From [Clostridium] symbiosum (GTDB lineage: Bacteria > Bacillota > Clostridia > Lachnospirales > Lachnospiraceae), in assembly GCA_021769625.1 (NCBI GenBank), contig JAETSN010000009.1:3052-67051 (forward strand): a DNA stretch of 64,000 nt. Reading direction: 5' to 3'. Positions 10,478 through 60,045 of the stretch are shown one piece after another. Both the position numbers and the translations under genes were made by a program. Under the pieces are notes generated by a model. That model was not told the origin of the DNA and searched no databases. It was given only the letters and a program-made list of their open reading frames with translations. Each line of letters opens with the position of its first letter. Position 1 is the stretch's first letter.

Positions 10478-11806
10478 TCATCTTTTTACCAAGATATTTT
10501 TTGTCATCCAGACCAGATAAAGCGGAATACTGTATGTCTCTGTTTTCTCCACCATATTTCTCCCAATATTTTTCATCGAAAATTTAAATCCTGCCTCCGG
10601 CTCATATTTTTTGCAGAATTGCCGGTAGCTTTTCGCCCTCGTGTGAAGTTCCGTCTTCGCCTCCACCGGAATGATCTTATCTTCATACTCAAACAGGAAA
10701 TCCAGTTCGGCCACATTCCCTGATCTCCAGAAATAAGGCCTTATATCCAGCGCTGTCAGTTCAGTCAGCACAAAGTTTTCTGTAAATGCCCCTTTAAAAT
10801 TCTTATACAACTCCGAATCTTCCAAAATCGTTCTGGCAGAGACTCCGGATTTTCTTCGAAGCAGCCCCACATCCGCCATATAGACTTTAAAAAAAGCCGC
10901 ATCCGCATAGAATGACAGCGGAAGTTCCGGATTTTTCGCCAGCTCCAGACGATAGACCAGCCCCGCATCCGTGAGCCATTCCAGCGCATCCTCCAATTCA
11001 CCTGACCGTTTTCCTTCTTTTACATGGGAAAATACAAATTTATTGTTGTCTTTCGCCAATTGTTTCGGAACGGAGTCCCATATCCATCCCAGTTTTGGAA
11101 TATCCGTTTTGGGCGCATGCTTCGCGAAGTCGTTTGTGTAATCAAGCAGAATATTGTCCTGCAGTCTTTCCACTTCCTCAACGATATGCGTCTGCGTCCA
11201 TTTTGCGACAGCCTCCGGCATCCCTCCGACAATATAATAATATTTCAGCTTTTTCTCCAATGCAGACGTATACAATTCCGGCAGTTCCCTCTCCGCCCCA
11301 TATCTCTGAACGCCTTCATAGAGAGCCTCCCCGCCGTCCGCCCTCAGAAATTCCGAAAATGTCATCGGATACATCCTGAGCCTGTCAACTTTTCCGACAG
11401 GGAATGATATATTGTCCCTTTTTACTGCCACACCCAACAGAGAACCCGCACAGATCACATGCAGCTCCCGCCTGTTCTCGCAAAAATATTTCAGGGAAGT
11501 GACCGCATTGGGACACGCCTGGATCTCATCGAAGATCACCAGAGTTTTTCCCGGTATGATCTCCTTCCCCCTGACAATATTGCCCAGTTCATCCAAAATT
11601 CTGTCAATATTATAATCATAGTCAAATACCGAAGAGAGCCCTTTATTCCCCTCAAAACTGAAATAAGCGGTGTCCTCAAAGTATCTCTCCCCGAACTCTT
11701 TGCAGACATAAGTCTTCCCGCACTGCCTCACACCGATGAGCAGCAACGGTTTCCTGTCCGTCCTGTCTTTCCACTCCACAAGTTTTTGCATGATATCTCT
11801 CTTCAA
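10478..11806 (-). CDS. AAA+ ATPase with DUF4143 and C-terminal PD-(D/E)XK-like domain (paralogue 1)
   Basis: GVRQCGKT, IFDEIQ, CAGSLLG, MYPMTFSEFL, YYIVGGMPE, ELDF...IPVEAK; TTG start at 11806 with RBS AAGGAGG. Confidence 0.88.
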   Translation of the reverse strand: MKRDIMQKLVEWKDRTDRKPLLLIGVRQCGKTYVCKEFGERYFEDTAYFSFEGNKGLSSVFDYDYNIDRILDELGNIVRGKEIIPGKTLVIFDEIQACPNAVTSLKYFCENRRELHVICAGSLLGVAVKRDNISFPVGKVDRLRMYPMTFSEFLRADGGEALYEGVQRYGAERELPELYTSALEKKLKYYYIVGGMPEAVAKWTQTHIVEEVERLQDNILLDYTNDFAKHAPKTDIPKLGWIWDSVPKQLAKDNNKFVFSHVKEGKRSGELEDALEWLTDAGLVYRLELAKNPELPLSFYADAAFFKVYMADVGLLRRKSGVSARTILEDSELYKNFKGAFTENFVLTELTALDIRPYFWRSGNVAELDFLFEYEDKIIPVEAKTELHTRAKSYRQFCKKYEPEAGFKFSMKNIGRNMVEKTETYSIPLYLVWMTKNILVKR

Positions 11807-11990
11807 ATCCGTCCTCCTTACGCCGCTTTGCCATTCCCTGCACATCCGGTTTCTGTAATATACAGTTTACCACATTTCTCCCCGAATTGCAGAAAAATGC
11901 AATAATTCATATGAATTTTTACATTTATTTTGTATTTTTCATATGAACAAACGCATTCTCGATAAAATATTTGATGCCTCAAAATATTAT

Positions 11991-12019
11991 TTGACTGTTT
12001 CGCCTTAAGCCGTTATAAT
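11991..12019 (+). promoter_or_regulatory. Sigma-A promoter of tRNA-Ser
   Basis: TTGACT (11991-11996), 17-nt spacer, TATAAT (12014-12019). Confidence 0.85.
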
Positions 12020-12032
12020 AGTTACAGCTTTT

Positions 12033-12120
12033 GGAGATGTACCCAAGTGGCTGAAGGGTCCGCACTCGAAATGCGGTAGGTCGGGCAACCGGCGCGAGAG
12101 TTCAAATCTCTCCATCTCCG
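12033..12120 (+). tRNA. tRNA-Ser (anticodon CGA)
   Basis: Acceptor stem GGAGATG/CATCTCC, anticodon arm CCGCA-CT-CGA-AA-TGCGG, long variable arm, T-loop GTTCAAATC; CCA not encoded. Confidence 0.97.
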
Positions 12121-12224: not shown

Positions 12225-13871
12225 TCACATATCCTTCTCCAGAACAATGCTCTCATAGGGCCTTAACCGGATCACATCCGTCCTGATCTCATCGTCTTCA
12301 TAGTTGCCGAGGATCTTCCGGTATCCTGCCCATGTGCCGCCTGCCGCAGCCTCCGTTTCTTCGGCGGTCAGATTGTTAAATACCGCAATGCTGCTGCCTT
12401 CACAGTCCCTCCGGTATGCAAGGATTCCTTCATTTTCCTTCTCCAAAAATGTGATTTTGCCTTCAGATATAACCTTACTGTCCTTTCTCAGGGCAATCAG
12501 TTTTTTATAGTAGGATAAAACGGAAGCCTCATCCCCTTCCTCTGCTTTTGCATTGATCGTTCCATAGTTTTCTGCAGGTTCTATCCATGGATTCCCCTCC
12601 GTGAACCCGGCGTTTTTTTCACCGGTCCACTGCATCGGCGTCCTCGCATTATCCCTCGACCTTGCCGCCAGTATTTCAAGCGCCTCTTTTTCGGTTTTTC
12701 CCTGCTTTAAGAGGATCTCATAGTAGTTCAGGCTTTCCACATCCCGGTACTGCGATATCTCCCGATAGTGCGGATTGGTCATTCCGAGCTCCTCCCCCTG
12801 ATAAATGTAGGGTGTTCCCCGCATCAGATGGATACATGTCGCAAGCATCTTTGCCGACTCTTTCCAGTATTTTCCCTCATCCCCGAGCCTCGATACGATC
12901 CTCGGCTGATCGTGGTTACACCAGAACAGGGCATTCCATCCGTTCTCGTCCTGCATCCGCACCTGCCACTTTTCAAACAGATTCTTCAGCGCCCGTCTGT
13001 CCGGCTCCATGAGCTCCCACTTGTTTCCGTCCCTGTAATCGACTTTCAGATGATGAAAACTGAAACACATGGACAGCTCCTTTTCCTGCGGATTGGAATA
13101 GCGGATGCAATCCTGCAGCGATGTCGACGACATCTCCCCCACCGTCACCATATCCCCGATTCCCGTATCCCTCACAAGCTCCTTCAGGTATTCATGGATA
13201 TGGGGACCGTCCGTATAGAACTTCCTGCCGTCGCCTTCAGGATCATCCTCAAACACTTCCGGTTTGGAGATCAGGTTCACCACATCAAACCGGAACCCCT
13301 TTACACCCTTCTTTTTCCAGAATCGAATCACTTTTTTCAGCTCTTCCCGCACTTCGGGATTATCCCAGTTTAAATCCGCCTGCGTCACATCGTACAGATG
13401 GAGATACCATTTGCCGAGCGACGGCACATATTCCCATGCGGGACCGCCGAATTTCGACTCCCAGTTTGTCGGGGCCTTACCCGCATCCCCTTCTCTAAAG
13501 ATATAGTAATCCTGATATCTTTTCTCACCTTTTAAGGCTTTCTGAAACCACTCATGGTTTGTGGAAGTATGATTGAACACCATATCCAGCATCACGCCGA
13601 TCCCTCTTTTTTCCCCTTCCGCGATCACATCCTCCAGATCCTGCATTGTCCCAAACCTCGGATCTATATTGCAGTAATCCGCAACATCATAACCGTTGTC
13701 ATTCTGCGGCGAACAAAACACCGGTGTAAGCCAAAGATAATCAATCCCCATTTCTTCCAGGTAATCCAATCTTTCTATGATCCCCCGCAGATCTCCCAGG
13801 CCATCCCCGTCTGAATCCTGAAAAGATTTCGGATAAATCTGATATACCACTTTATTTTTAAAATCCGCCAT
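12225..13871 (-). CDS. treC: Alpha,alpha-phosphotrehalase (GH13)
   Basis: VVYQIYPKSFQD, DMVFNH, GFRFDVVNLI, VGEM, WCNHDQPR; tre context. Confidence 0.92.
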   Translation of the reverse strand: MADFKNKVVYQIYPKSFQDSDGDGLGDLRGIIERLDYLEEMGIDYLWLTPVFCSPQNDNGYDVADYCNIDPRFGTMQDLEDVIAEGEKRGIGVMLDMVFNHTSTNHEWFQKALKGEKRYQDYYIFREGDAGKAPTNWESKFGGPAWEYVPSLGKWYLHLYDVTQADLNWDNPEVREELKKVIRFWKKKGVKGFRFDVVNLISKPEVFEDDPEGDGRKFYTDGPHIHEYLKELVRDTGIGDMVTVGEMSSTSLQDCIRYSNPQEKELSMCFSFHHLKVDYRDGNKWELMEPDRRALKNLFEKWQVRMQDENGWNALFWCNHDQPRIVSRLGDEGKYWKESAKMLATCIHLMRGTPYIYQGEELGMTNPHYREISQYRDVESLNYYEILLKQGKTEKEALEILAARSRDNARTPMQWTGEKNAGFTEGNPWIEPAENYGTINAKAEEGDEASVLSYYKKLIALRKDSKVISEGKITFLEKENEGILAYRRDCEGSSIAVFNNLTAEETEAAAGGTWAGYRKILGNYEDDEIRTDVIRLRPYESIVLEKDM

Positions 13872-14886
13872 AATAAAACTCCCGTCCCGATCTAACGTTC
13901 AGCACATCGCTTGCCATGCTGCCCGGCTGGATGGAAAGAATACCTGGCAGGCCGCCCACGCCGATCGCATTCGCCGTCGTGGAAGTCGCTACGCAGATGA
14001 CCGCTGCGATACCCGAGCCGATCATGCCGCTGACAAAAGGAAATCCATGCTTTAAATTTACACCGAAGATCGTCGGTTCCGTCACGCCGAGGTAGCAGGA
14101 GATACCCGCCGGAATATTTACTTCCTGTGCCTGCGCGTTCTTTTTCTGCAAAGCTGCCATACCCATCACCGCGGAGCCCTGTGCGATATTGGAGAGCGCG
14201 ATCATCGGCCACAGCATGGTTCCGCCGTAGTCCGCGATAAGCTGCAGATCGATGGCGTTGGACATATGGTGCAGTCCCGTGATGACAAGGGGCGCATAGA
14301 CCGTTCCGAATACCGCACCGAATATCACCTTAACCGGTCCAGTAATTCCTGCATATACAACCGCCGAAATGACGGAGCCGATCTTCCAGCCGATCGGTCC
14401 TAACACAAAGTGTGACGCCATTACCGCCAGCACAAGGCTGCAGAACGGGACAACGATCATGGAGACCACCTGCGGCGTTATCTTTCTGAAAAACTTCTCC
14501 AGATAGACAAGCGTAAATGCCGCCAGGATCGCCGGAATCACCTGCGCGAAAATCTCCGCAAGCGCCGTCACGATCCTCTGCAGCACATTCTGGTTTTTCT
14601 TTGCCGCCTGCTTCACCGCATCCTTGGAAACCCCTTCTATCCCTGCCGCCGCCACAAAGTCATTGTAAAAATCGGCTACCGTGTTGCCGATGATGACCTG
14701 AAACTGTCCCGACTGGGTAAAGCTTCCCTTCACCACTTTCATCTTTTCAATGGCAGCGACATCCGCCTTTCCCGGCTCCGCCAGCGCAAAACGCATCCTT
14801 GTCATACAGTGGGAAGCCGCCGCAATATTCTCTTTTCCGCCGACGAGTTTCAACAGTTCCCTCGCATCTGCTTCATACTTACCCAT
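13858..14886 (-). pseudogene. treB: Trehalose PTS EIIBC with an apparent in-frame internal deletion and aberrant C-terminus
   Basis: EIIB HCMTRMRF and GQFQVIIG present. The early EIIC motif (ALAEIF) is joined directly to a later one (AQVIPAILAAFTLVYLEK). 342 aa versus roughly 470 aa for characterised TreB/TreP; ends in a polar tail overlapping treC. Confidence 0.65.
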
Positions 14887-14949: not shown

Positions 14950-15032
14950 ACTTGTTTAAACATGTTACGATTCTTTTATATCATACTTGTTTGAACATGT
15001 CAACAACTTTTCCGAAATTTGTTTGAACAAGT
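14950..15032. promoter_or_regulatory. Three putative TreR operator palindromes
   Basis: ACTTGTTTAAACATGT (14950-14965), ACTTGTTTGAACATGT (14985-15000) and ATTTGTTTGAACAAGT (15017-15032) between divergent treB and treR; matches the TGT-N-ACA style of HutC/GntR boxes. Confidence 0.8.
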
Positions 15033-15179
15033 TGTTGATTTTTTGCAAAACGGGATTTATACTGGTATGGTAAGACAGTTTATTCCTTAAAATCATAACA
15101 CAGAAAAGACGCAAAAGTTCATATAGCATATATAAAAGGAAAGGACTTCCGGGCAGATGCTCCCGGACGCAGCGACAAC

Positions 15180-15911
15180 ATGCCTAAGAGTATTTATGAA
15201 GAAATTTATAAAGATTTAAAACAGAAGATCGAACAGGATATATTTCCTTATCAGGAACTGCTGCCCTCGGAAAATTCCCTGATCCGGACTTACAACTGTT
15301 CCAGAAATACTGTCCGCCGGGCCATCAGCCGTCTCGTCGCCGACGGATACGTGCAGACCATGCAGGGCAAGGGCGTGCGCAATATATACCGCCCCATCGG
15401 ACAGGCTGCCTTTACGCTGGGCGAGATTGAGACCTTCCGTGAATCCGCTATCCGAAACGGCCGGACCCCCCGCACGGAAGTCCTTCTGTTTACCGAGATC
15501 ACGGCGGATGAAAAGCTCTCGCAGCGGACAGGCTTCCCTGCCGGTTCTGTGATATACTACATCCAGCGCCTGCACTATCTGGATGGAATGCCGCTGATCC
15601 TCAACCACAACTATTTTTTAAAGGAATGTACGCCCGGGCTTTCAAAAGAGATCGCTGAAAACTCCATCTATCAATATCTGGAGAACGAACTCCATATGAC
15701 GATCGTAAACAGCCGCAGGATCATGACGGTTGAGAAGATGACCGAGATCGATGAGAAATATCTTGAACTGAACGCGGAAGATTACAACTGCATGGCGGTG
15801 GTCAGCAGCTATACCTACAACAGCGACGGCATCATGTTTGAATATACGCAGTCACGGCACCGCCCTGATTATTTTCATTTTCAGGACAATGCCGTGCGAA
15901 AATCCGGTTGA
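15180..15911 (+). CDS. treR: Trehalose operon repressor (GntR/HutC family, UTRA domain)
   Basis: LLPSENSL...SRNTVRRAI...QGKG HTH; C-terminal FEYTQSRHRPD; divergent from treBC. Confidence 0.92.
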   Translation: MPKSIYEEIYKDLKQKIEQDIFPYQELLPSENSLIRTYNCSRNTVRRAISRLVADGYVQTMQGKGVRNIYRPIGQAAFTLGEIETFRESAIRNGRTPRTEVLLFTEITADEKLSQRTGFPAGSVIYYIQRLHYLDGMPLILNHNYFLKECTPGLSKEIAENSIYQYLENELHMTIVNSRRIMTVEKMTEIDEKYLELNAEDYNCMAVVSSYTYNSDGIMFEYTQSRHRPDYFHFQDNAVRKSG

Positions 15912-33842: not shown

Positions 33843-35510
33843 ATGAGAAAACAGGTACTTTCCCATCTGAAAGGAATCCTTTTTATCGCTTTCTTTTTTT
33901 CTTTATTTATTATGCTGCTCGGTATGAGGCAGTATTCGCAAAAGCGCCTTTTTGTCCTTTCCTTTTCCGGATTCCTTGCCGCCGGTATTTTCTTTGACAT
34001 TTTGGCAGGCAGGCTTTCTCCCAAAATGCACCGCCTTCTTTCCGGGGAAAAGCTTTCCGAAAAAATAGACGCTTCCTTTTCCGACAAAATGCAAAAATGG
34101 TTTTTATGGCTGTTCATCACCCTTTCCTTTGCGCCCGCTTATCTGGCACTGTTTCCCGGCACCTTCGGGTACGATGCGCCGGTTCAGGCGGCGCAGTATT
34201 TCGGAGAGATGGAACTTTCCAGCGCCAATCCGTTACTGCATACCTCCCTGCTGGGCCTTTTTCTCTCTTTCGGGGAAAAGATTCTGAAAAATGCTTCTCT
34301 GGGCGTTGCCCTGTTCAGCCTGCTGCAGGGACTTCTTGTCACCCATGTACTGGCTAAGTCCTTCTTATTTCTGAAAAAGATCCATACTCCCTTCAGCGTT
34401 ATCGTGATCGGGCTTCTCTGGATCTTATGTAACACGCCCCTCCATGTGCTGACCTTCAATGTGACAAAGGATATCCTGTTTGGCGTATGCCTTCTGCACT
34501 TTTTACTGAATTTTTTGGGTGTGCTGCAGTCTGACAGCGGACTCTCCTGCCCGTCACGCCGGACACACGCCGCAAGATGGGCGGGTTTTCTCCCGTCCCT
34601 GTGTACATCAGAAAAAAAAGGCTTTCTGCGCCTGCTTTTGTCCGGTATCGTGATGTGCCTTATGAGAAACGCCGCTGTATATCTGGTTGCCGTACTGATC
34701 ATTGCGCTGCTTTTTTCTTTTCGGAAATACAAAAAAGCTTTTCTTTCTTTATGTATGATCTTTCTCATCTCCTGGCTGTTTTCCCGTTTTTCCACTTACG
34801 CGCTGCATATCATGCCGGGGGACGCTCGGGAAAATATGAGCCTCCCGATCCAGCAGCTTGCGGCAGTTGCCCATTCCGCCCACTACGGCACGGAACCTGT
34901 CGATATCACGCAGGAACAACTGACAGCTATCCATGAGCTTATCCCCGTGGAATCTTTAGAGGTATTTATGCGCGACACTGTGGATCTGGTGAAAGCCGAT
35001 TTCGACACCAAAACCTTTGCCGAAAATCCCCGAAAATACATCTCCCTCTACCTTGCCGTCGGCAGGCAGAATCCCGGCATTTACATCCGCGCTTTCCGCG
35101 ATATGACAGTGCCCTATTTCGACATGACCAAAAGCCTCCGCAGGGACTTATGCCTTACGGCAACTTTCCCCGAGGTCTCGCATCTGCGCATTTCCAGATA
35201 CGGACTTCTTCCCTCATACTATAACTTTCTGGAAGAACAGATCGAGACAGACCACTATTTCCTGCTGATGCAGCCCGGTATTTCCATCTGGCTGATGGTC
35301 ATCGGCATCGGCGTCTCCATCAACCGCAAAAACAAAGAAATCTTTCTGTGTATCCTGCCGATTGCCATCTATTTCATCGGCCTGCTTCTCGGGCCTATGG
35401 CGCTGCTGCGTTATCTTTATCCCATGATGCTCACAACGCCGCTGTTGTTTGGAATTCTTTTCTCTGCTCCAACGCCATTCCGATCAGTTGATCTGTCTGA
35501 TCAGCCATGA
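33843..35510 (+). CDS. Polytopic membrane protein (DUF6020-like, probable GT-C)
   Basis: Many TM segments; FPGTFGYD, TKDILF, MRN, LRYLYP; start ATG 33843. Confidence 0.75.
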   Translation: MRKQVLSHLKGILFIAFFFSLFIMLLGMRQYSQKRLFVLSFSGFLAAGIFFDILAGRLSPKMHRLLSGEKLSEKIDASFSDKMQKWFLWLFITLSFAPAYLALFPGTFGYDAPVQAAQYFGEMELSSANPLLHTSLLGLFLSFGEKILKNASLGVALFSLLQGLLVTHVLAKSFLFLKKIHTPFSVIVIGLLWILCNTPLHVLTFNVTKDILFGVCLLHFLLNFLGVLQSDSGLSCPSRRTHAARWAGFLPSLCTSEKKGFLRLLLSGIVMCLMRNAAVYLVAVLIIALLFSFRKYKKAFLSLCMIFLISWLFSRFSTYALHIMPGDARENMSLPIQQLAAVAHSAHYGTEPVDITQEQLTAIHELIPVESLEVFMRDTVDLVKADFDTKTFAENPRKYISLYLAVGRQNPGIYIRAFRDMTVPYFDMTKSLRRDLCLTATFPEVSHLRISRYGLLPSYYNFLEEQIETDHYFLLMQPGISIWLMVIGIGVSINRKNKEIFLCILPIAIYFIGLLLGPMALLRYLYPMMLTTPLLFGILFSAPTPFRSVDLSDQP

Positions 35511-36792
35511 ACAGCGGGATGTTCAGTACATCTTCATCCAATTTCAGGTTATTCAAAGAGAAACGTACACGGAGCTTTACCTTATCCGGAAACAGTTCCT
35601 TGAACTTTCTGAGGCTCTTGCTGGATGTATTGGCCTCAGATTTAACCTCGACAGGGAAAATATCATTTTCACGCTGTATCAGGAAGTCCACCTCATACGG
35701 AGGATTGATCTGTGTCCAATAGCGGGGAGTTACTTCGAACTGGGTGATCAGGGTTTGCAGCACAAAGTTCTCAGTCAATGCACCTCTGAACTCGGTGAAC
35801 AGGCGATTTCCCTCACCGAAAGCAGTAGGGGCTAACTGTGCCAGACGACGGAGCAGGCCCACATCTGCCAGATAAATCTTAAAGGCCGACAGATCATCAT
35901 AAGCCGATACAGGAAGGCCAGGGGCAGAGCTGCGATAGATTTTGTGCACCAGTCGGGCATCTACCAGCCACTGCAGTGCGTCCTCATATTCACGGGCTCT
36001 TGCACCTTCTTTGACAACTTTGTAAATGAATTTCTTGTTTTCTCTTGCAAGCTGGGAAGGAATGGACTTCCAGACCATAGATATCTTTGGAAACTCACTG
36101 ATATTGGGATGCTTTGCAAAGTCACGCTCATAAGCACCAATAATGCCGGACAAGGCTTCCTGCATAGCAGAAACATCACGGGCATGTGTCCACATCAGAA
36201 CGGGTTCAGGCATGCCGCCAGTGACATAGTACATCTTCAGTTTTTCATACAAAGGATTGAAGAACGCATCCGGGATCGGCTCAATGGTATCCACACTTTC
36301 CAGATATGCAGCAAGATTTTCATCACCATTGGCAAGCAGGAATTCCGAGAAGGTCATAGGATCGATCTGCATGAAATTAACCTTGCCAACAGGGAAAGAA
36401 GAAGGCTTTGCCAGAGCAATGCCCAACAGGGAACCGGCGCAGGCGATATGATACTGCGGAGCGTTCTCACAAAAATACTTCATGGAGTTGATGACCTTGG
36501 AACAGTCCTGCACCTCGTCAAAGATAATGAGAGTCTTTTCCGGCAAGATTCTCTGACCACTGGCCAGCATCAGATTTTGCAGAATGCGGTCAACATCTTT
36601 GGTAGTCTCGAAAAACTGTTTGTATTCTTCGTTTTCGTCGAAGTTAAAGTAAGCGGTATTTTCGTAGTAACATTTACCGAACTCTTTCAGGATCCATGTC
36701 TTACCTACCTGACGTACTCCCTTCAGGACCAAAGGCTTGCGATAGGGGGAATTCTTCCAGTCCAGTAACTTTTTCAATATGAAGCGTTCCAT
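35431..36792 (-). CDS. AAA+ ATPase with DUF4143 and PD-(D/E)XK-like C-terminus (paralogue 2)
   Basis: GVRQVGKT, IFDEVQ, CAGSLLG, YYVTGGMPE, EVDF...FPVEVKS; ATG 36792 with RBS GAGGAG. Confidence 0.88.
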   Translation of the reverse strand: MERFILKKLLDWKNSPYRKPLVLKGVRQVGKTWILKEFGKCYYENTAYFNFDENEEYKQFFETTKDVDRILQNLMLASGQRILPEKTLIIFDEVQDCSKVINSMKYFCENAPQYHIACAGSLLGIALAKPSSFPVGKVNFMQIDPMTFSEFLLANGDENLAAYLESVDTIEPIPDAFFNPLYEKLKMYYVTGGMPEPVLMWTHARDVSAMQEALSGIIGAYERDFAKHPNISEFPKISMVWKSIPSQLARENKKFIYKVVKEGARAREYEDALQWLVDARLVHKIYRSSAPGLPVSAYDDLSAFKIYLADVGLLRRLAQLAPTAFGEGNRLFTEFRGALTENFVLQTLITQFEVTPRYWTQINPPYEVDFLIQRENDIFPVEVKSEANTSSKSLRKFKELFPDKVKLRVRFSLNNLKLDEDVLNIPLFMADQTDQLIGMALEQRKEFQTTAAL

Positions 36793-36887
36793 AGGTGCAC
36801 TCCTCACACTTTTATTAAGGTTTTTGTGTTTCAAAATCACATTTTCATTATATGCTAAAGTCTGTGGAAATACAACCCATCACTCTA

Positions 36888-56089: not shown

Positions 56090-56542
56090 TCACCGCTCCT
56101 CTATCATACTCTCCAGATACCCTCTGTCCCAGAGCAGTATCTTCAGCTTTTTCGCCGCCTCCACCGCGGGCTGCGTAAAATACTGGTTCGTCAGCACCGC
56201 GCCCACCATGCAATCATAGTAGTCCCTGCCGGCATAGGCCTCCTGCACCGCCTTTACGCCGACGCTGTCCCTGTAGCACTTGCACTGGATCGCATAGGTA
56301 ACGCCGTCCCGCTCCGCCAGAATATCGATCCCGTAGTCGCCGCTGCCCCTTGTCACCTCTACCTCCTGAAAGCCGCGCTTTCTCAATAAGTCTGCGCAGT
56401 AATACTCAAAATCATGGCCGTCCAGCAGATCAAAGTCCCTCCCGTATGCGCGCCTCTTTCTCACCTGCATCAGGATGAGACATAATATCAGGAAAACGGC
56501 TGCAGATGCTATTATTATGATCATGTATGCTTTTGTATCCAT
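56090..56542 (-). CDS. Membrane-anchored Mrr-type restriction endonuclease domain protein
   Basis: N-terminal TM helix; FEYYCADLL, GSGDYGIDI, AIQCK, TNQYFT (Mrr_cat pattern); ATG 56542. Confidence 0.85.
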   Translation of the reverse strand: MDTKAYMIIIIASAAVFLILCLILMQVRKRRAYGRDFDLLDGHDFEYYCADLLRKRGFQEVEVTRGSGDYGIDILAERDGVTYAIQCKCYRDSVGVKAVQEAYAGRDYYDCMVGAVLTNQYFTQPAVEAAKKLKILLWDRGYLESMIEER

Positions 56543-56567
56543 AATTCTATTGTGCTCCTTCTCTGTC

Positions 56568-57896
56568 TTACAGGAACTGTGCCATATAAACAGGAAAACA
56601 GAATATGTCTCTGTCTTTTTTTGCATCTTTCGTGTAAAGCAAGTATTTTTCCAGTATCCTGTCAGAATATTTTTCAGAAAACGCATCTAAAGAAGCATGT
56701 GTCTTATAGCCTGACGACTTAACTTCAATCGGACATATTTTATTCTTTTTTGCAAATAAAAAATCTATCTCGTAATTATGCCGTGATGTCACATTTAAAA
56801 AAGTATGATAGAACAACTCTTTTCCTTTTGCTGCTAAAGTCTGTGCCACAATATTTTCATATAAATACCCTAAATTTGTTCCCAACTTATCACTCAGCAA
56901 TTTTTCATATATGATATTTTCTGTAAAATCTCTGTTCTTAAATATAAGAGTCGTAAACAACCCCGTATCTGACAGAAAAAGCTTAAATTTTTCCAGATCT
57001 ATGCTGTTCGACATTCCCGCATCAGGATCATTCACATGGTATGCCACCAGCACTGTTTTTGACTCTTTCATTTCAGCTATCAGATCAAGAATGCTGTCTG
57101 CTCTCTCATTTGCCAGAACGCTGGACACCTGATATCTGGATGCATTTTTGTTAAGCTGGGCAGGAATCGAATCAAATAAAAGGGAAATCTTTCCTGTCGA
57201 ATCTATTTTGTGGAAATCATCCTCGTATAAATGAAGAATATCCCTTTTTACCATATCTACCTTTTTAAAATTGTTAGTGCGAAGATATTCATCCACCGCC
57301 TGCGGCATCCCACCCACCAACATATATAGCCTGAACTTCCTCATAAGCTTTCGATGAGCCGCATCGCCAACCCCTTTTTCCTTTTTAAATACCTGTTCAA
57401 GCAACGGCACAGTCACAGTATCTCCTATTGCCCAGAGAAACTCCTCATAATCCATGGGATACATATTGATTTTTCTCTCTTCACTGGGAATCAGAATATC
57501 CTTTACATTACGTTTTATACTGATCAAAGATCCTGTTTCTATATAATCATAACGATGGTCTTTTACCAGTATTTTTATTGCCTGTCTCGCCTGCGGGCAG
57601 AACTGCACCTCATCAAATATGATCAAAGAATTCCTGTCATATAATTCCGCGTTATATTGCAATTGCAATTGTAAAAAAATATAATTCAAATCTGACATAT
57701 CCGAAAACAGTTCCCGGATTTCTTTAGATGCAATAGAAAAATCAATTAAAATATAGCTCCTGTATTCCTTTTGGGCAAACTTTTCCACTATTGTGGATTT
57801 ACCGATTCGGCGGGCACCCTCTATCAATAATGCGGTCTTTCCTTCTGACTCCTGTTTCCACTCCAACAATTTATCATATATTTTCCTTTTAAACAT
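56568..57896 (-). CDS. AAA+ ATPase with DUF4143 and PD-(D/E)XK-like C-terminus (paralogue 3, AT-rich)
   Basis: GARRIGKS, IFDEVQ, ETGSLIS, YMLVGGMPQ, EIDF...PIEVKS. Confidence 0.88.
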   Translation of the reverse strand: MFKRKIYDKLLEWKQESEGKTALLIEGARRIGKSTIVEKFAQKEYRSYILIDFSIASKEIRELFSDMSDLNYIFLQLQLQYNAELYDRNSLIIFDEVQFCPQARQAIKILVKDHRYDYIETGSLISIKRNVKDILIPSEERKINMYPMDYEEFLWAIGDTVTVPLLEQVFKKEKGVGDAAHRKLMRKFRLYMLVGGMPQAVDEYLRTNNFKKVDMVKRDILHLYEDDFHKIDSTGKISLLFDSIPAQLNKNASRYQVSSVLANERADSILDLIAEMKESKTVLVAYHVNDPDAGMSNSIDLEKFKLFLSDTGLFTTLIFKNRDFTENIIYEKLLSDKLGTNLGYLYENIVAQTLAAKGKELFYHTFLNVTSRHNYEIDFLFAKKNKICPIEVKSSGYKTHASLDAFSEKYSDRILEKYLLYTKDAKKDRDIFCFPVYMAQFL

Positions 57897-57924: not shown

Positions 57925-58006
57925 CAAAATCGCGATTTTTATTCCGTCGTTTTCCCTCAAAATCGTTATTTTTATATTCTCATTATACCCCAAAATCGTT
58001 ATTTTT
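57925..58006. repeat. Three 16-bp boxes at exact 33-bp period upstream of ATPase paralogue 3
   Basis: CAAAATCGCGATTTTT (57925), CAAAATCGTTATTTTT (57958), CAAAATCGTTATTTTT (57991). Confidence 0.88.
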
Positions 58007-58128
58007 CAACCCTGTTACACGATACGAACTTTCTGATATTCACCCCGGCGGCGATCCTGACCGTCTTTGGTGCTAATACATGCCCTCCCGCGCATATATT
58101 GTAAGGACTTACCCTATCAGGAGTTCCT

Positions 58129-60045
58129 ATGCACATCCGATCCAAAATCCGCAACCTTTCCACCGGCCAAAAAATATTTGCAGCTCTGCTTCTCGGCATC
58201 CTGCTTTTTCTCGCCGGTTTTTTACCCGCTTTCTTCTCGCCAAACGCCGCGTCCCTTTTTGCGGACGCCTCCTACAATAAACTCTGCCGCGAAATATTCC
58301 GCAGCGAACTTTCCGGCAACACCCTGACGCTCCATTATACCCTGCTGAATCCCGCGGACTACGGGATCTACGAGAATGAAGCGCATCTTCCCGTCTACTC
58401 CGCGGACAGCCGCGCCCTCTCCGCAGCCGCCGTCACCGACTGGTCGGAGCGCCTTGCCTCCATTGATCCGGAAAAGCTCTCTGAAAAAAACAGGTACGGC
58501 TACACGTTGCTTGCCCGCTATCTGGCGCTGCTGCAGTCCCTTTCCGCCTACTCCTGTTATGAGGAACCCCTTTCCCCCAACAGCGGCATGCAGCAGACCC
58601 TCCCTGTCCTTTTTTCTGAATACAGGTTTACGAAGCGCAAGGACATCGATGATTACCTCTCCCTGCTCTCCCAGACCGGAGATTATTTTCAGGGACTTCT
58701 TATCTTTGAACAGGAAAAAGCAGACGCCGGGCTTTTTATGTCTAAGGCCAGCGCGGATATGCTGATCAGCGGATGCGAGTCCTTCCTCACGGAAGACTCC
58801 ATCAACAACGGTTCCCACTTTTTGGTGGATTCCTTTGCCGAACGTCTTATGGAATTTCAAAAAAACTATCCTGAACTGCTCAGTGATGAAGCCTTTGAAA
58901 CCTACTATCAGGAAAATATCCGCATTCTGAAAGAAGATGTGATGCCCGCCTATCAGATGCTGGCAGAAGAAATGACACGATTGTCAGAAAATGCCGTCCG
59001 CAGCAATACAACGGATGATCCCGGCCTTTTGGCAGGTTCCGATGACCCCCAAATCTCCGGCAATTCCGACAAGGATGCCCAAAAGCAGAACTATTATGCC
59101 CTGCTGGTACAAAAATCCACCGGTTCCTACCGCCCTTTAGAGGAAGTGCAGGAAATGCTCTATGTCCAGTTTGACACGCTGCGCGCAGAACTGATGGATC
59201 TCAAAAAACAGGAAGCGGATCCCCGGATCGCAGGCCGGCATACCCATCCCCTGTCCGTGGAAGATATCCTCACATTTTTGCAGGAGGATATGAGGGAAGA
59301 TTTTCCCCCTCTCCTTTCGGGTGCTCCCGATCAGTCCGGAAGTCCCTTAAAGAGGCAGCTTCCCGCCGTCTCCTGCGATATCAAATATATATCGAAAACC
59401 CTGTCCGCATCCAGCGCGCCGGCTTTTTACCTGACGCCGCCGATGGACGCCTTCGACAAAAATGTGATCTACATCAACCCGGATTCATCACTGGAAGGCG
59501 CCGCCCTCTTTACCACCCTCGCCCACGAGGGTTTCCCGGGCCATCTATACCAGACCGTCTACGCGCGGGAAAGCGGTATTGCGGACCGTAAGAATCCTCT
59601 GCGCGGCATTCTCGACTATCCTGGCTACTGCGAGGGCTGGGCGCTCTACGTGGAACTTGCTTCCTACGACTATGCCGCAAACTATTATGCCATCGACACT
59701 GACGCCCTGAAGAGCGCCCGCTCTCTGGAACTTTGCCTGTGTGCCCTGCTGGATCTTCACATTCATTATTATGGCTTCACCCTGCCCCAGACGCAATCGC
59801 TCCTCGCCGCCTTCGGGGTCCCTGCAGACGCCGCGGAAAACATCTATTCCTATATCAAACAGGAACCGGCAAACTACTTAAAGTATTATCTCAGCTACCT
59901 TGAGATCCTCTCTTTAAAGCAGGATGCCGAAGCGCTCTGGAAAGATGCGTATTCCGACTACCGTTTTCATCAGTTTTATCTCGATGCCGGTCCTTCGGAT
60001 TTTTCCTCCCTGAGAGAGCGTCTTGAAGAGGCCGGGATCAGGTAG
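58129..60045 (+). CDS. DUF885-family protein
   Basis: N-terminal signal/TM; APAFYL, TLAHEGFPGHLYQ, YCEGWALYVE, PANYLKYY. Confidence 0.88.
   Translation: MHIRSKIRNLSTGQKIFAALLLGILLFLAGFLPAFFSPNAASLFADASYNKLCREIFRSELSGNTLTLHYTLLNPADYGIYENEAHLPVYSADSRALSAAAVTDWSERLASIDPEKLSEKNRYGYTLLARYLALLQSLSAYSCYEEPLSPNSGMQQTLPVLFSEYRFTKRKDIDDYLSLLSQTGDYFQGLLIFEQEKADAGLFMSKASADMLISGCESFLTEDSINNGSHFLVDSFAERLMEFQKNYPELLSDEAFETYYQENIRILKEDVMPAYQMLAEEMTRLSENAVRSNTTDDPGLLAGSDDPQISGNSDKDAQKQNYYALLVQKSTGSYRPLEEVQEMLYVQFDTLRAELMDLKKQEADPRIAGRHTHPLSVEDILTFLQEDMREDFPPLLSGAPDQSGSPLKRQLPAVSCDIKYISKTLSASSAPAFYLTPPMDAFDKNVIYINPDSSLEGAALFTTLAHEGFPGHLYQTVYARESGIADRKNPLRGILDYPGYCEGWALYVELASYDYAANYYAIDTDALKSARSLELCLCALLDLHIHYYGFTLPQTQSLLAAFGVPADAAENIYSYIKQEPANYLKYYLSYLEILSLKQDAEALWKDAYSDYRFHQFYLDAGPSDFSSLRERLEEAGIR

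Follow-up and report, generated by a model that had tools for sequence, protein, structure and literature searches.

The three boxes found between positions 57925 and 58006 of the window, by which we mean the whole 64-kb stretch of [Clostridium] symbiosum DNA (64,000 nucleotides) that was analysed, are best explained as an iteron-like array of operators to which the product of the gene directly downstream, an AAA_14-DUF4143 protein, would bind. We assign a probability of roughly 0.68 to this reading, in which binding of the protein to the boxes is inferred and has not been shown.

The pattern CAAAATCG(CG/TT)ATTTTT started at positions 57925, 57958, and 57991 on the plus strand, with no further match within the 64-kb window. 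On the gene strand (minus), the boxes read AAAAAT(AA/CG)CGATTTTG. Start-to-start spacings were 33 and 33 bp, and the repeat finder grouped the three boxes as one family. When up to two mismatches were allowed, none of 100 dinucleotide shuffles equaled the observed box count (shuffle mean, 0.24). No second exact copy of the 12-mer core AATAACGATTTT was present in the whole 4.08-Mb assembly, and the 14-mer core was likewise without a second exact copy there. The 82-bp array lies within the 232-bp gap that separates two divergent genes, the AAA_14+DUF4143 gene on the minus strand and a DUF885 gene on the plus strand. The features of the locus are as follows:

57925 to 57940, minus strand: box 1, proximal; CAAAATCGCGATTTTT on the plus strand and AAAAATCGCGATTTTG on the gene strand, at about +36 to +51 of the predicted start.
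57958 to 57973, minus strand: box 2, middle; CAAAATCGTTATTTTT on the plus strand and AAAAATAACGATTTTG on the gene strand, at about +3 to +18 of the predicted transcription start.
57991 to 58006, minus strand: box 3, distal; CAAAATCGTTATTTTT on the plus strand and AAAAATAACGATTTTG on the gene strand, filling the spacer between the predicted -35 and -10 hexamers.
58004 to 58009, minus strand: predicted -35 hexamer TTGAAA (consensus match only, no transcript data).
57982 to 57987, minus strand: predicted -10 hexamer TATAAT (consensus match only, no transcript data).
56568 to 57896, minus strand: gene of 442 amino acids with AAA_14, winged-helix-like, and DUF4143 (PD-(D/E)xK) parts, ATG at 57896; presumed reader of the boxes.
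58129 to 60045, plus strand: DUF885 gene, the divergent neighbor.
56090 to 56686, minus strand: Mrr_cat restriction-endonuclease-like ORF, sharing 119 nt, in a different frame, with the 3' end of the DUF4143 gene.

The Mrr_cat ORF was not conserved beside homologues of the DUF4143 gene elsewhere.

A preliminary description of this DNA had placed three boxes, in an exact 33-bp phase, 29-110 nt upstream of the ATG at 57896. The phase was confirmed by the sequence itself, the repeat finder, and the shuffles, and the distances were confirmed for the 442-aa AAA_14+DUF4143 ORF on the minus strand. The same description had called the boxes palindromic, which is correct for the proximal box only, since AAAATCGCGATTTT, lying inside it, is a perfect palindrome. 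Box 1 is mismatched to boxes 2 and 3 at box positions 7-8; the latter two are not palindromic, and their pairing is limited to the A4/T4 arms. Across the family (see below), 2 of 182 box consensuses were near-palindromic, and palindromy as a family feature was rejected; the boxes are asymmetric direct repeats. The further statement that the boxes lie on one face of the DNA can be kept only as an approximation, 33 bp being about 3.14 turns of B-DNA.

The predicted promoter, TTGAAA-16-TATAAT, matched 11 of the 12 consensus positions, with the distal box as its spacer, and boxes 1 and 2 lie within the predicted leader of the AAA_14+DUF4143 gene. That two boxes are predicted to be transcribed at the window locus would be compatible with repeats that act as RNA, in a leader structure or a small-RNA-like array. 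This possibility, together with that of a neutral relic of tandem duplication, is disfavored and considered scarcely tenable. The leader had no stable RNA fold (z = +0.29) and the array region had no Rfam match, on which grounds an RNA element was rejected; moreover, the array lies upstream of the promoter in most clades.

The layout was compared across homologues in sets of increasing breadth. A search with the protein as query in 201 genomes of the window's bacterial family (window genome included) yielded the upstream DNA of 29 homologues with 49-78% identity, nearly all of which had two to four direct repeats with a period of exactly 33 bp and a word that varied from clade to clade. A cross-phylum scan, using one genome per species, gave 80 more loci (58-80% identity) from Lachnospiraceae, Oscillospiraceae, Peptostreptococcaceae, Treponema and other Spirochaetota, Bacteroidales, Bifidobacterium, Eggerthellaceae, Fibrobacter, Dehalococcoidales, and others, and the same picture of phased repeats was found in them. 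For a formal count, 106 upstream regions of 220 nt were used and a repeat was defined by at least 12 identical positions out of 14. A repeat at a spacing (d) of 33 bp was present in 97 regions and one at d = 66 in 59, against 0.2 and 0.0 regions, respectively, in dinucleotide shuffles, and no other spacing exceeded 7 regions. As a control, 956 other upstream regions of the same genome showed a flat spacing histogram, with d = 33 in five of them; two of these five matches were the window array itself, seen from its two flanking genes. The periodicity check that the preliminary description had proposed for DUF4143 genes was therefore met by a single sharp peak, with d = 33 in 97/106 regions versus 0.2 after shuffling and 5/956 in the genome controls.

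Enlarging the set by 80 metagenome loci and 20 more distant homologues gave 194 distinct proteins with 34-80% identity from at least six phyla. An array was identified for 182 of them, consisting of two to six copies and most often of three; the remaining 12 were without a clear array. Among 381 successive spacings, 341 were 33 bp, and the others were 34 bp (18), 32 bp (16), 30 bp (5), and 31 bp (1).

The boxes of all loci were put in a common register by expectation-maximization, which gave the consensus AAAATTTGCGATTTTGGG, with G8 and G10 as the most conserved positions. The word is about 16-18 bp long, specific to the lineage, and kept identical within an array. Position 9 was the most variable between lineages (about 1.7 bits), and 71 core words were counted among the 182 arrays. 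In 173 of these arrays, the boxes were asymmetric and ran in the direction of the gene. Within arrays, pairwise identity was 0.98 at positions 9-10 and 0.85 over positions 3-16, whereas identity at spacer positions 26-29 was 0.23-0.34, compared with a random expectation of 0.32, from which it follows that the copies are old and that maintenance has been confined to the box. In some relatives, whole 33-nt units were still similar, which indicates an origin by duplication and is the observation that speaks for a neutral relic. Neutrality is ruled out by the contrast between spacers that have decayed to random and boxes that are still 85-98% identical. Judged from these sequence comparisons, the array is a conserved, selected cis-element belonging to the DUF4143 gene family.

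The position of the boxes relative to the promoter was also conserved, and in two promoter types. A sigma-70-type promoter matching at least 10/12 positions was present in 42 homologous loci; its -35 hexamer began 3-5 nt before box position 1 in 30 of them, as at the window locus, and one period further upstream in four more. The copy that fills the promoter spacer was the distal one in the window's clade and the proximal one in other clades. In 75 loci with the Bacteroidota-type -7 motif TAnnTTTG, the distance from position 1 of the last called copy forward to the start of this motif was 26-28 nt at 54 loci, 43 of them with exactly 27 nt, and 59-61 nt at seven more, a total of 61/75. In this register, the box's own TTTG lies 19-22 nt upstream of TAnnTTTG, where a -33 element is expected. 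The array is thus, as far as promoter motifs can tell, re-fitted to two different promoter architectures, as an operator needs. At Bacteroidota-type loci (among L078-L127 and L164-L207), it was also observed that the promoter-proximal copy was often a half box, in which the 5' part ATTTTGAGG was kept and the 3' part was lost.

The register bears on another explanation, in which the array serves the ATPase-nuclease primarily as a working substrate or assembly platform, with autoregulation as a by-product. An ATP-dependent oligomer might nucleate on it, the nuclease might dock there and stay inactive until it is triggered, or the array might be a site of cleavage or nicking. The strict 33-bp period and the head-to-tail orientation would suit a polar AAA+ assembly, but a fixed register with two promoter types is needed by an operator and not by a platform, and it argues for an operator rather than a mere platform. 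Further sites were missing from the genome, and no arrays of the window word were found in viral contigs, which also weighs against a platform. In IMG/VR, the 15-mer occurred only once per stretch among the matches listed, and never as an array; these single copies in viral stretches were taken to be at chance level, without an expected number to compare them with. We regard the platform as unlikely to be the primary role of the array, and it does not exclude the self-operator reading.

The genome of the window harbors 17 DUF4143 paralogues, at ordinary chromosomal loci beside housekeeping genes. A 31-34-bp repeat was found upstream of 5 of the 16 analyzable paralogues and in 14 of 954 controls (Fisher, 6e-6). 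The five array-bearing paralogues include both of the other paralogues in the window, whose arrays are as follows:

11906 to 11947, minus strand: array of paralogue A (gene 10478-11845); TTCATATGAA twice, copies at 11906 and 11938, spacing 32.
36804 to 36850, minus strand: array of paralogue B (gene 35431-36792); TAATGAAAATGTGA and TAATAAAAGTGTGA, copies at 36837 and 36804, spacing 33, 12/14 identical.

These spacings of 32 bp (A) and 33 bp (B) bear out the earlier claim that the two paralogues carry 32-33-bp-spaced repeats of different sequence. The distal copy of paralogue B overlaps a TATAAT. Just beyond the TTCATATGAA pair, at 11950-12040, a sequence resembling a tRNA gene (GGAGAGATTTGAACTCTCG...) was noticed on the opposite strand, by look only. 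Repeats were also seen at DUF4143 paralogues on other contigs: four copies of GAAAGTGCGACTAAAAAATGT at 32/31/32 bp (contig C38), ATTCCCTCATTTTT three times at 32 bp (C105), CGGAATAAAATCCG with a period of 39-40 bp (C141), and a long palindrome, ATTATCAATAGTTTTTG...CAAAAACTATTGATAAT (C113). The differing spacings on C38, C105, and C141 indicate that the period varies between subfamilies. For a second paralogue clade of the same genome, with the Walker-A context VITGxRRxGKS, no array was detected at the threshold used.

Other repeats in this genome were recorded separately. A CRISPR-like array with a period of 67-69 and the repeat GTCTCTGCCTGTATTGGCAGAGTGGATTTAAAT was located at a contig end (C1:1-290), and tandem 37-bp units resembling REP elements (TTAGCATAAGCCTGCTCGCGGAGCGTGCAGGTGTTGG) were among the sites of note on contigs C2, C67, C82, C111, and C125, at several intergenic sites. 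In the window, three near-palindromes (ACTTGTTTAAACATGT, ACTTGTTTGAACATGT, and TTGTTTGAACAAGT), 35 and 32 bp apart, were observed at 14950-15035, between a PTS EIIBC gene (13858-14886, minus strand) and a divergent gene for a GntR/HutC-UTRA regulator (15180-15911, plus strand). They look like ordinary GntR-type operators.

Such phased operator pairs of ordinary regulators, the GntR/HutC-type palindromes at 14950-15035 being an example from the same window, make it conceivable that another, host-encoded transcription factor binds the boxes, all the more as the evidence for binding by the cognate protein is only indirect. We give this explanation very little credence. The cassette was found in at least six phyla amid unrelated neighbors, each paralogue of one genome has a different word, and between close relatives a shift in the word is accompanied by substitutions that cluster in the protein; no host factor could keep pace with all of this. 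Further, no partner gene was co-inherited, the largest cluster of flanking proteins being present in 4 of 80 loci. Given a lineage-specific word, a paralogue-specific word, and a cassette of one gene, we infer that the reader is hardly other than the gene's own product.

The breadth of the distribution also raises the question of mobility. Proteins with 58-80% identity occurred in Firmicutes, Bacteroidota, Spirochaetota, Actinobacteriota, Fibrobacterota, and Chloroflexota, which points to strong horizontal transfer, and the array could accordingly be the end, or a recombination or recognition site, of a small mobile cassette made up of array and gene, with the protein as a homing or transposition nuclease. 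The similarity to relatives that starts at the -35 hexamer, the many paralogues in the genome, and the intact nuclease motifs would fit such a cassette. It nevertheless appears highly improbable, because neither the DNA downstream of the gene nor the rest of the genome contained a second copy of the word, inverted or direct, the cassette is not accompanied by an integrase or transposase, and the promoter register points to regulation. Plasmids and phages rarely carry the family (58 records out of 72,556 and 14 out of 50,697, respectively), which is therefore mainly chromosomal.

The self-operator reading was examined further at the level of the protein. The 442-aa product matched Pfam PF13173 (AAA_14; 1.7e-22, residues 21-154) and PF13635 (DUF4143; 1.2e-17, residues 228-395), and the PADLOC model PDLC04786 for PDC-S01 covered residues 1-441 of 442 (5.9e-102), which makes it a full-length member. 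Walker A (G27-x4-G32-K33) and Walker B (D95-E96), as well as D378 and E391-x-K393 of the PD-(D/E)xK motif, were invariant among 27 homologues; this invariance of catalytic residues and Walker motifs is a point in favor of a working platform for the enzyme. An AlphaFold model (pLDDT 88, pTM 0.87) consisted of an AAA+ base and lid, a helical/beta segment at 236-308 resembling a winged helix, and a C-terminal alpha/beta domain. No matching chain was found by sequence search of the PDB, and a Foldseek search against the PDB gave weak whole-chain matches only (E about 1e-5 to 1e-4, TM about 0.3), to MalT, DNA-bound Orc1/Cdc6 (2v1u and 2qby), RuvB, ClpA, and MuB. The match to 2v1u_A had an E-value of 3.8e-5 and TM scores of 0.28/0.31; 2qby_B was matched too, and MalT, RuvB, ClpA, and MuB scored alike. 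In the model, the architecture of AAA+ base, lid, winged-helix-like, and PD-(D/E)xK domains would be of a DNA-binding type, which was counted as supporting, in the absence of binding data. The helix after residue 266 is acidic in the window protein, so that the exact DNA-contacting surface is uncertain.

To relate the protein to its word, APC-corrected mutual information (MI) was computed between all protein columns and all box positions in sets of 89 and 182 loci. Residue 368 and base 9 formed the top pair in both sets, with an MI of 1.25 of 1.77 bits for 89 loci and 1.12 for 182 loci; in the latter set, the corrected MI was 0.52 for this pair, compared with 0.29 for the next. The residue-base pairings were N-C in 59/59, D-C in 12/12, T-A in 38/45, S-G in 15/21, and Y/F/I-T in 10/11 loci, and K was mixed. 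High ranks were also reached by residues 366, 367, 372, 373, and 374, which share the hairpin of residue 368 and immediately precede the D378 strand, and by residues 239-274 of the winged-helix-like segment. That the top covariation falls in a hairpin adjoining the catalytic aspartate, and not in a classical recognition helix, is a further point that the platform explanation can claim.

Shared descent confounds covariation of this kind, and a residue-level code is for this reason only suggestive. Contrasts of independent pairs gave 2-3 concordant versus 0-1 discordant cases for the residue-base code (p at least 0.25); the contrasts were few and the test was underpowered. About 17 contrasts between close pairs were available for the residue-base comparison. 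Raw counts over independent pairs were dominated by fast-evolving columns. In matched pairs, residue 368 changed in 10 of 16 pairs that differed at base 9 and in 11 of 53 that did not (p = 0.0026), but it ranked 6th of 442 columns and was not significant after correction. A rule linking R372 to A11 failed the independent-pair test and was left unsupported. Of the protein/site code and co-evolution suggested in the preliminary description, the lineage-specific words and the leading rank of residue 368 and base 9 in MI could be upheld, whereas significance under phylogenetic control could not.

Two natural swaps between close relatives were informative in this respect:

Loci L088, L184, and L190 versus L185, L188, L191, and L202: switch at core position 9 (T versus C); differences cluster at residues 368-387.
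Loci L166 and L170 versus L172: switch in the 3' half of the box; differences cluster at residues 257-266.

In the first, with GGTGG versus GGCGG, the proteins were 5-7% apart and differed at 368, 369, 377, 382, 384, and 387, plus 258, 259, and 271. In the second, where only the 3' half of the box changed, the proteins were 5.7% apart and 7 of the 25 differences fell at residues 257-266. These sequence swaps are suggestive of a two-part recognition and do not prove it.

On this basis, the following mechanism can be proposed for the self-operator reading. The AAA_14-DUF4143 protein would bind each box, probably in two parts. The 3' half would be recognized by a helix-turn segment at about residues 257-266, within the winged-helix-like domain, and the core by a beta-hairpin at about residues 366-373 of the nuclease-like domain, adjoining its catalytic aspartate. 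With the boxes about three helical turns from one another, protomers bound side by side may touch via the AAA+ module. An occupied promoter box would keep RNA polymerase out and, at the window locus, the two downstream boxes may act as an added roadblock, so that the gene would repress itself. Repression rather than activation is inferred only from the position of the boxes, without expression or transcript data. The earlier proposal of an array bound by the gene's own product is accordingly supported computationally, by the d = 33 peak, the words identical within arrays, the promoter register, and the absence of a partner, with binding remaining an inference.

A more far-reaching reading is possible, although we hold it to be speculative and rather improbable: DUF4143/PDC-S01 proteins may be a very large family of sequence-programmable AAA+ nucleases, each recognizing a long asymmetric two-part word, with residues at about 257-266 of the window protein reading the 3' half, those at about 366-373 the core, and residue 368 specifying position 9, such that N or D would select C, T would select A, S would select G, and an aromatic residue would select T, and with the promoter array as the native DNA partner of a polar, ATP-dependent oligomer. 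If this were true, specificity would be predictable from sequence and possibly re-designable.

PDC-S01 is reported to rank fourth among the most common candidate defense systems of prokaryotes, to number tens of thousands of copies across bacteria and archaea, and to be unvalidated (PMC12988326); DUF4143 has been placed among the PD-(D/E)xK families without known function (PMC3424549). No mechanism, ligand, or validated phenotype is known for PDC-S01. One PDC-S01 representative, which may have been expressed from a heterologous promoter, did not protect E. coli B against T7, T5, or T4 and was outside the four protective candidates (10.1101/2024.09.26.614923). As a full-length member, the window protein can be set beside the PDC-S01/COG1373 genes of this literature, which, to the extent that it was accessible, presents a single gene of unknown mechanism and no cognate repeats. 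No description of upstream repeats was found in the portion of the published literature on DUF4143, PDC-S01, and COG1373 that was available.

With a presumed cognate site that the genome sequence itself reveals for nearly all members, this very common family gains a first experimental handle. The natural diversity of words (71 core words in 182 arrays, and close protein pairs with different words) offers ready-made specificity swaps. The arrays also call for caution: PDC-S01 genes should not be counted as defense systems until it is clear how they relate to their own promoters.

Several known systems resemble the array in part. The iterons of theta plasmids (P1 RepA, F RepE, R6K pi, and pSC101 RepA) are co-oriented, helically phased repeats beside or over the promoter of the binder's gene; they serve autorepression, have a word specific to each replicon and a period of about 22 bp (two turns), and mark an origin. 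Their Rep initiators are tandem winged-helix proteins, not AAA+ nucleases. The window array is alike in its co-oriented phased repeats at the promoter of the presumed binder's gene, with a word of its own, and unlike in its period of 33 instead of about 22 bp, in its AAA_14 + DUF4143 protein, and in the 17 scattered chromosomal paralogues in place of an origin. Membership in an iteron plasmid replicon was considered and not met, the protein being AAA_14 + DUF4143 without a match to any Rep family of plasmid initiators.

Archaeal Orc1/Cdc6 with its origin recognition boxes (ORBs), and DnaA with DnaA boxes at its own promoter, are proteins with an AAA+ module followed by a DNA-binding domain. 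ORBs stand in inverted orientation and flank an unwinding element, and Orc1 and DnaA proteins lack a nuclease domain. The apparent likeness to the window system lies in AAA+ followed by a winged-helix-like segment and in arrayed sites by the own gene, and 2v1u and 2qby were among the best structural matches. Against this, the fold match to Orc1/Cdc6 is weak (TM about 0.3, E about 4e-5), no nuclease domain is present there, and to our knowledge the strict 33-bp head-to-tail period has no counterpart in Orc1/DnaA systems. An Orc1-type origin arrangement was not met either, since the copies are head-to-tail direct repeats and the 17 paralogues are at ordinary chromosomal loci.

Lrp/AsnC-type operators such as those of Ss-LrpB have several sites about three turns apart in their own control region, to which the regulator binds cooperatively. 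The likeness is confined to this spacing of about three turns in the own control region; the fold is unrelated, the sites are palindromic, and there is no ATPase or nuclease. McrBC combines an AAA+ motor and a PD-(D/E)xK nuclease as separate subunits and requires more than one recognition element, in the form of short modified sites at variable distance. The window system shares the combination of AAA+ with PD-(D/E)xK and differs by a long unmodified word at the enzyme's own promoter.

By analogy, then, the array would work like iteron-type autoregulation with an Orc1/DnaA-like flavor, as a member of neither class. The self-operator principle is known from these systems; relative to what has been published, the novelty would lie in its link with a highly abundant family without known function and in an unusually strict period.
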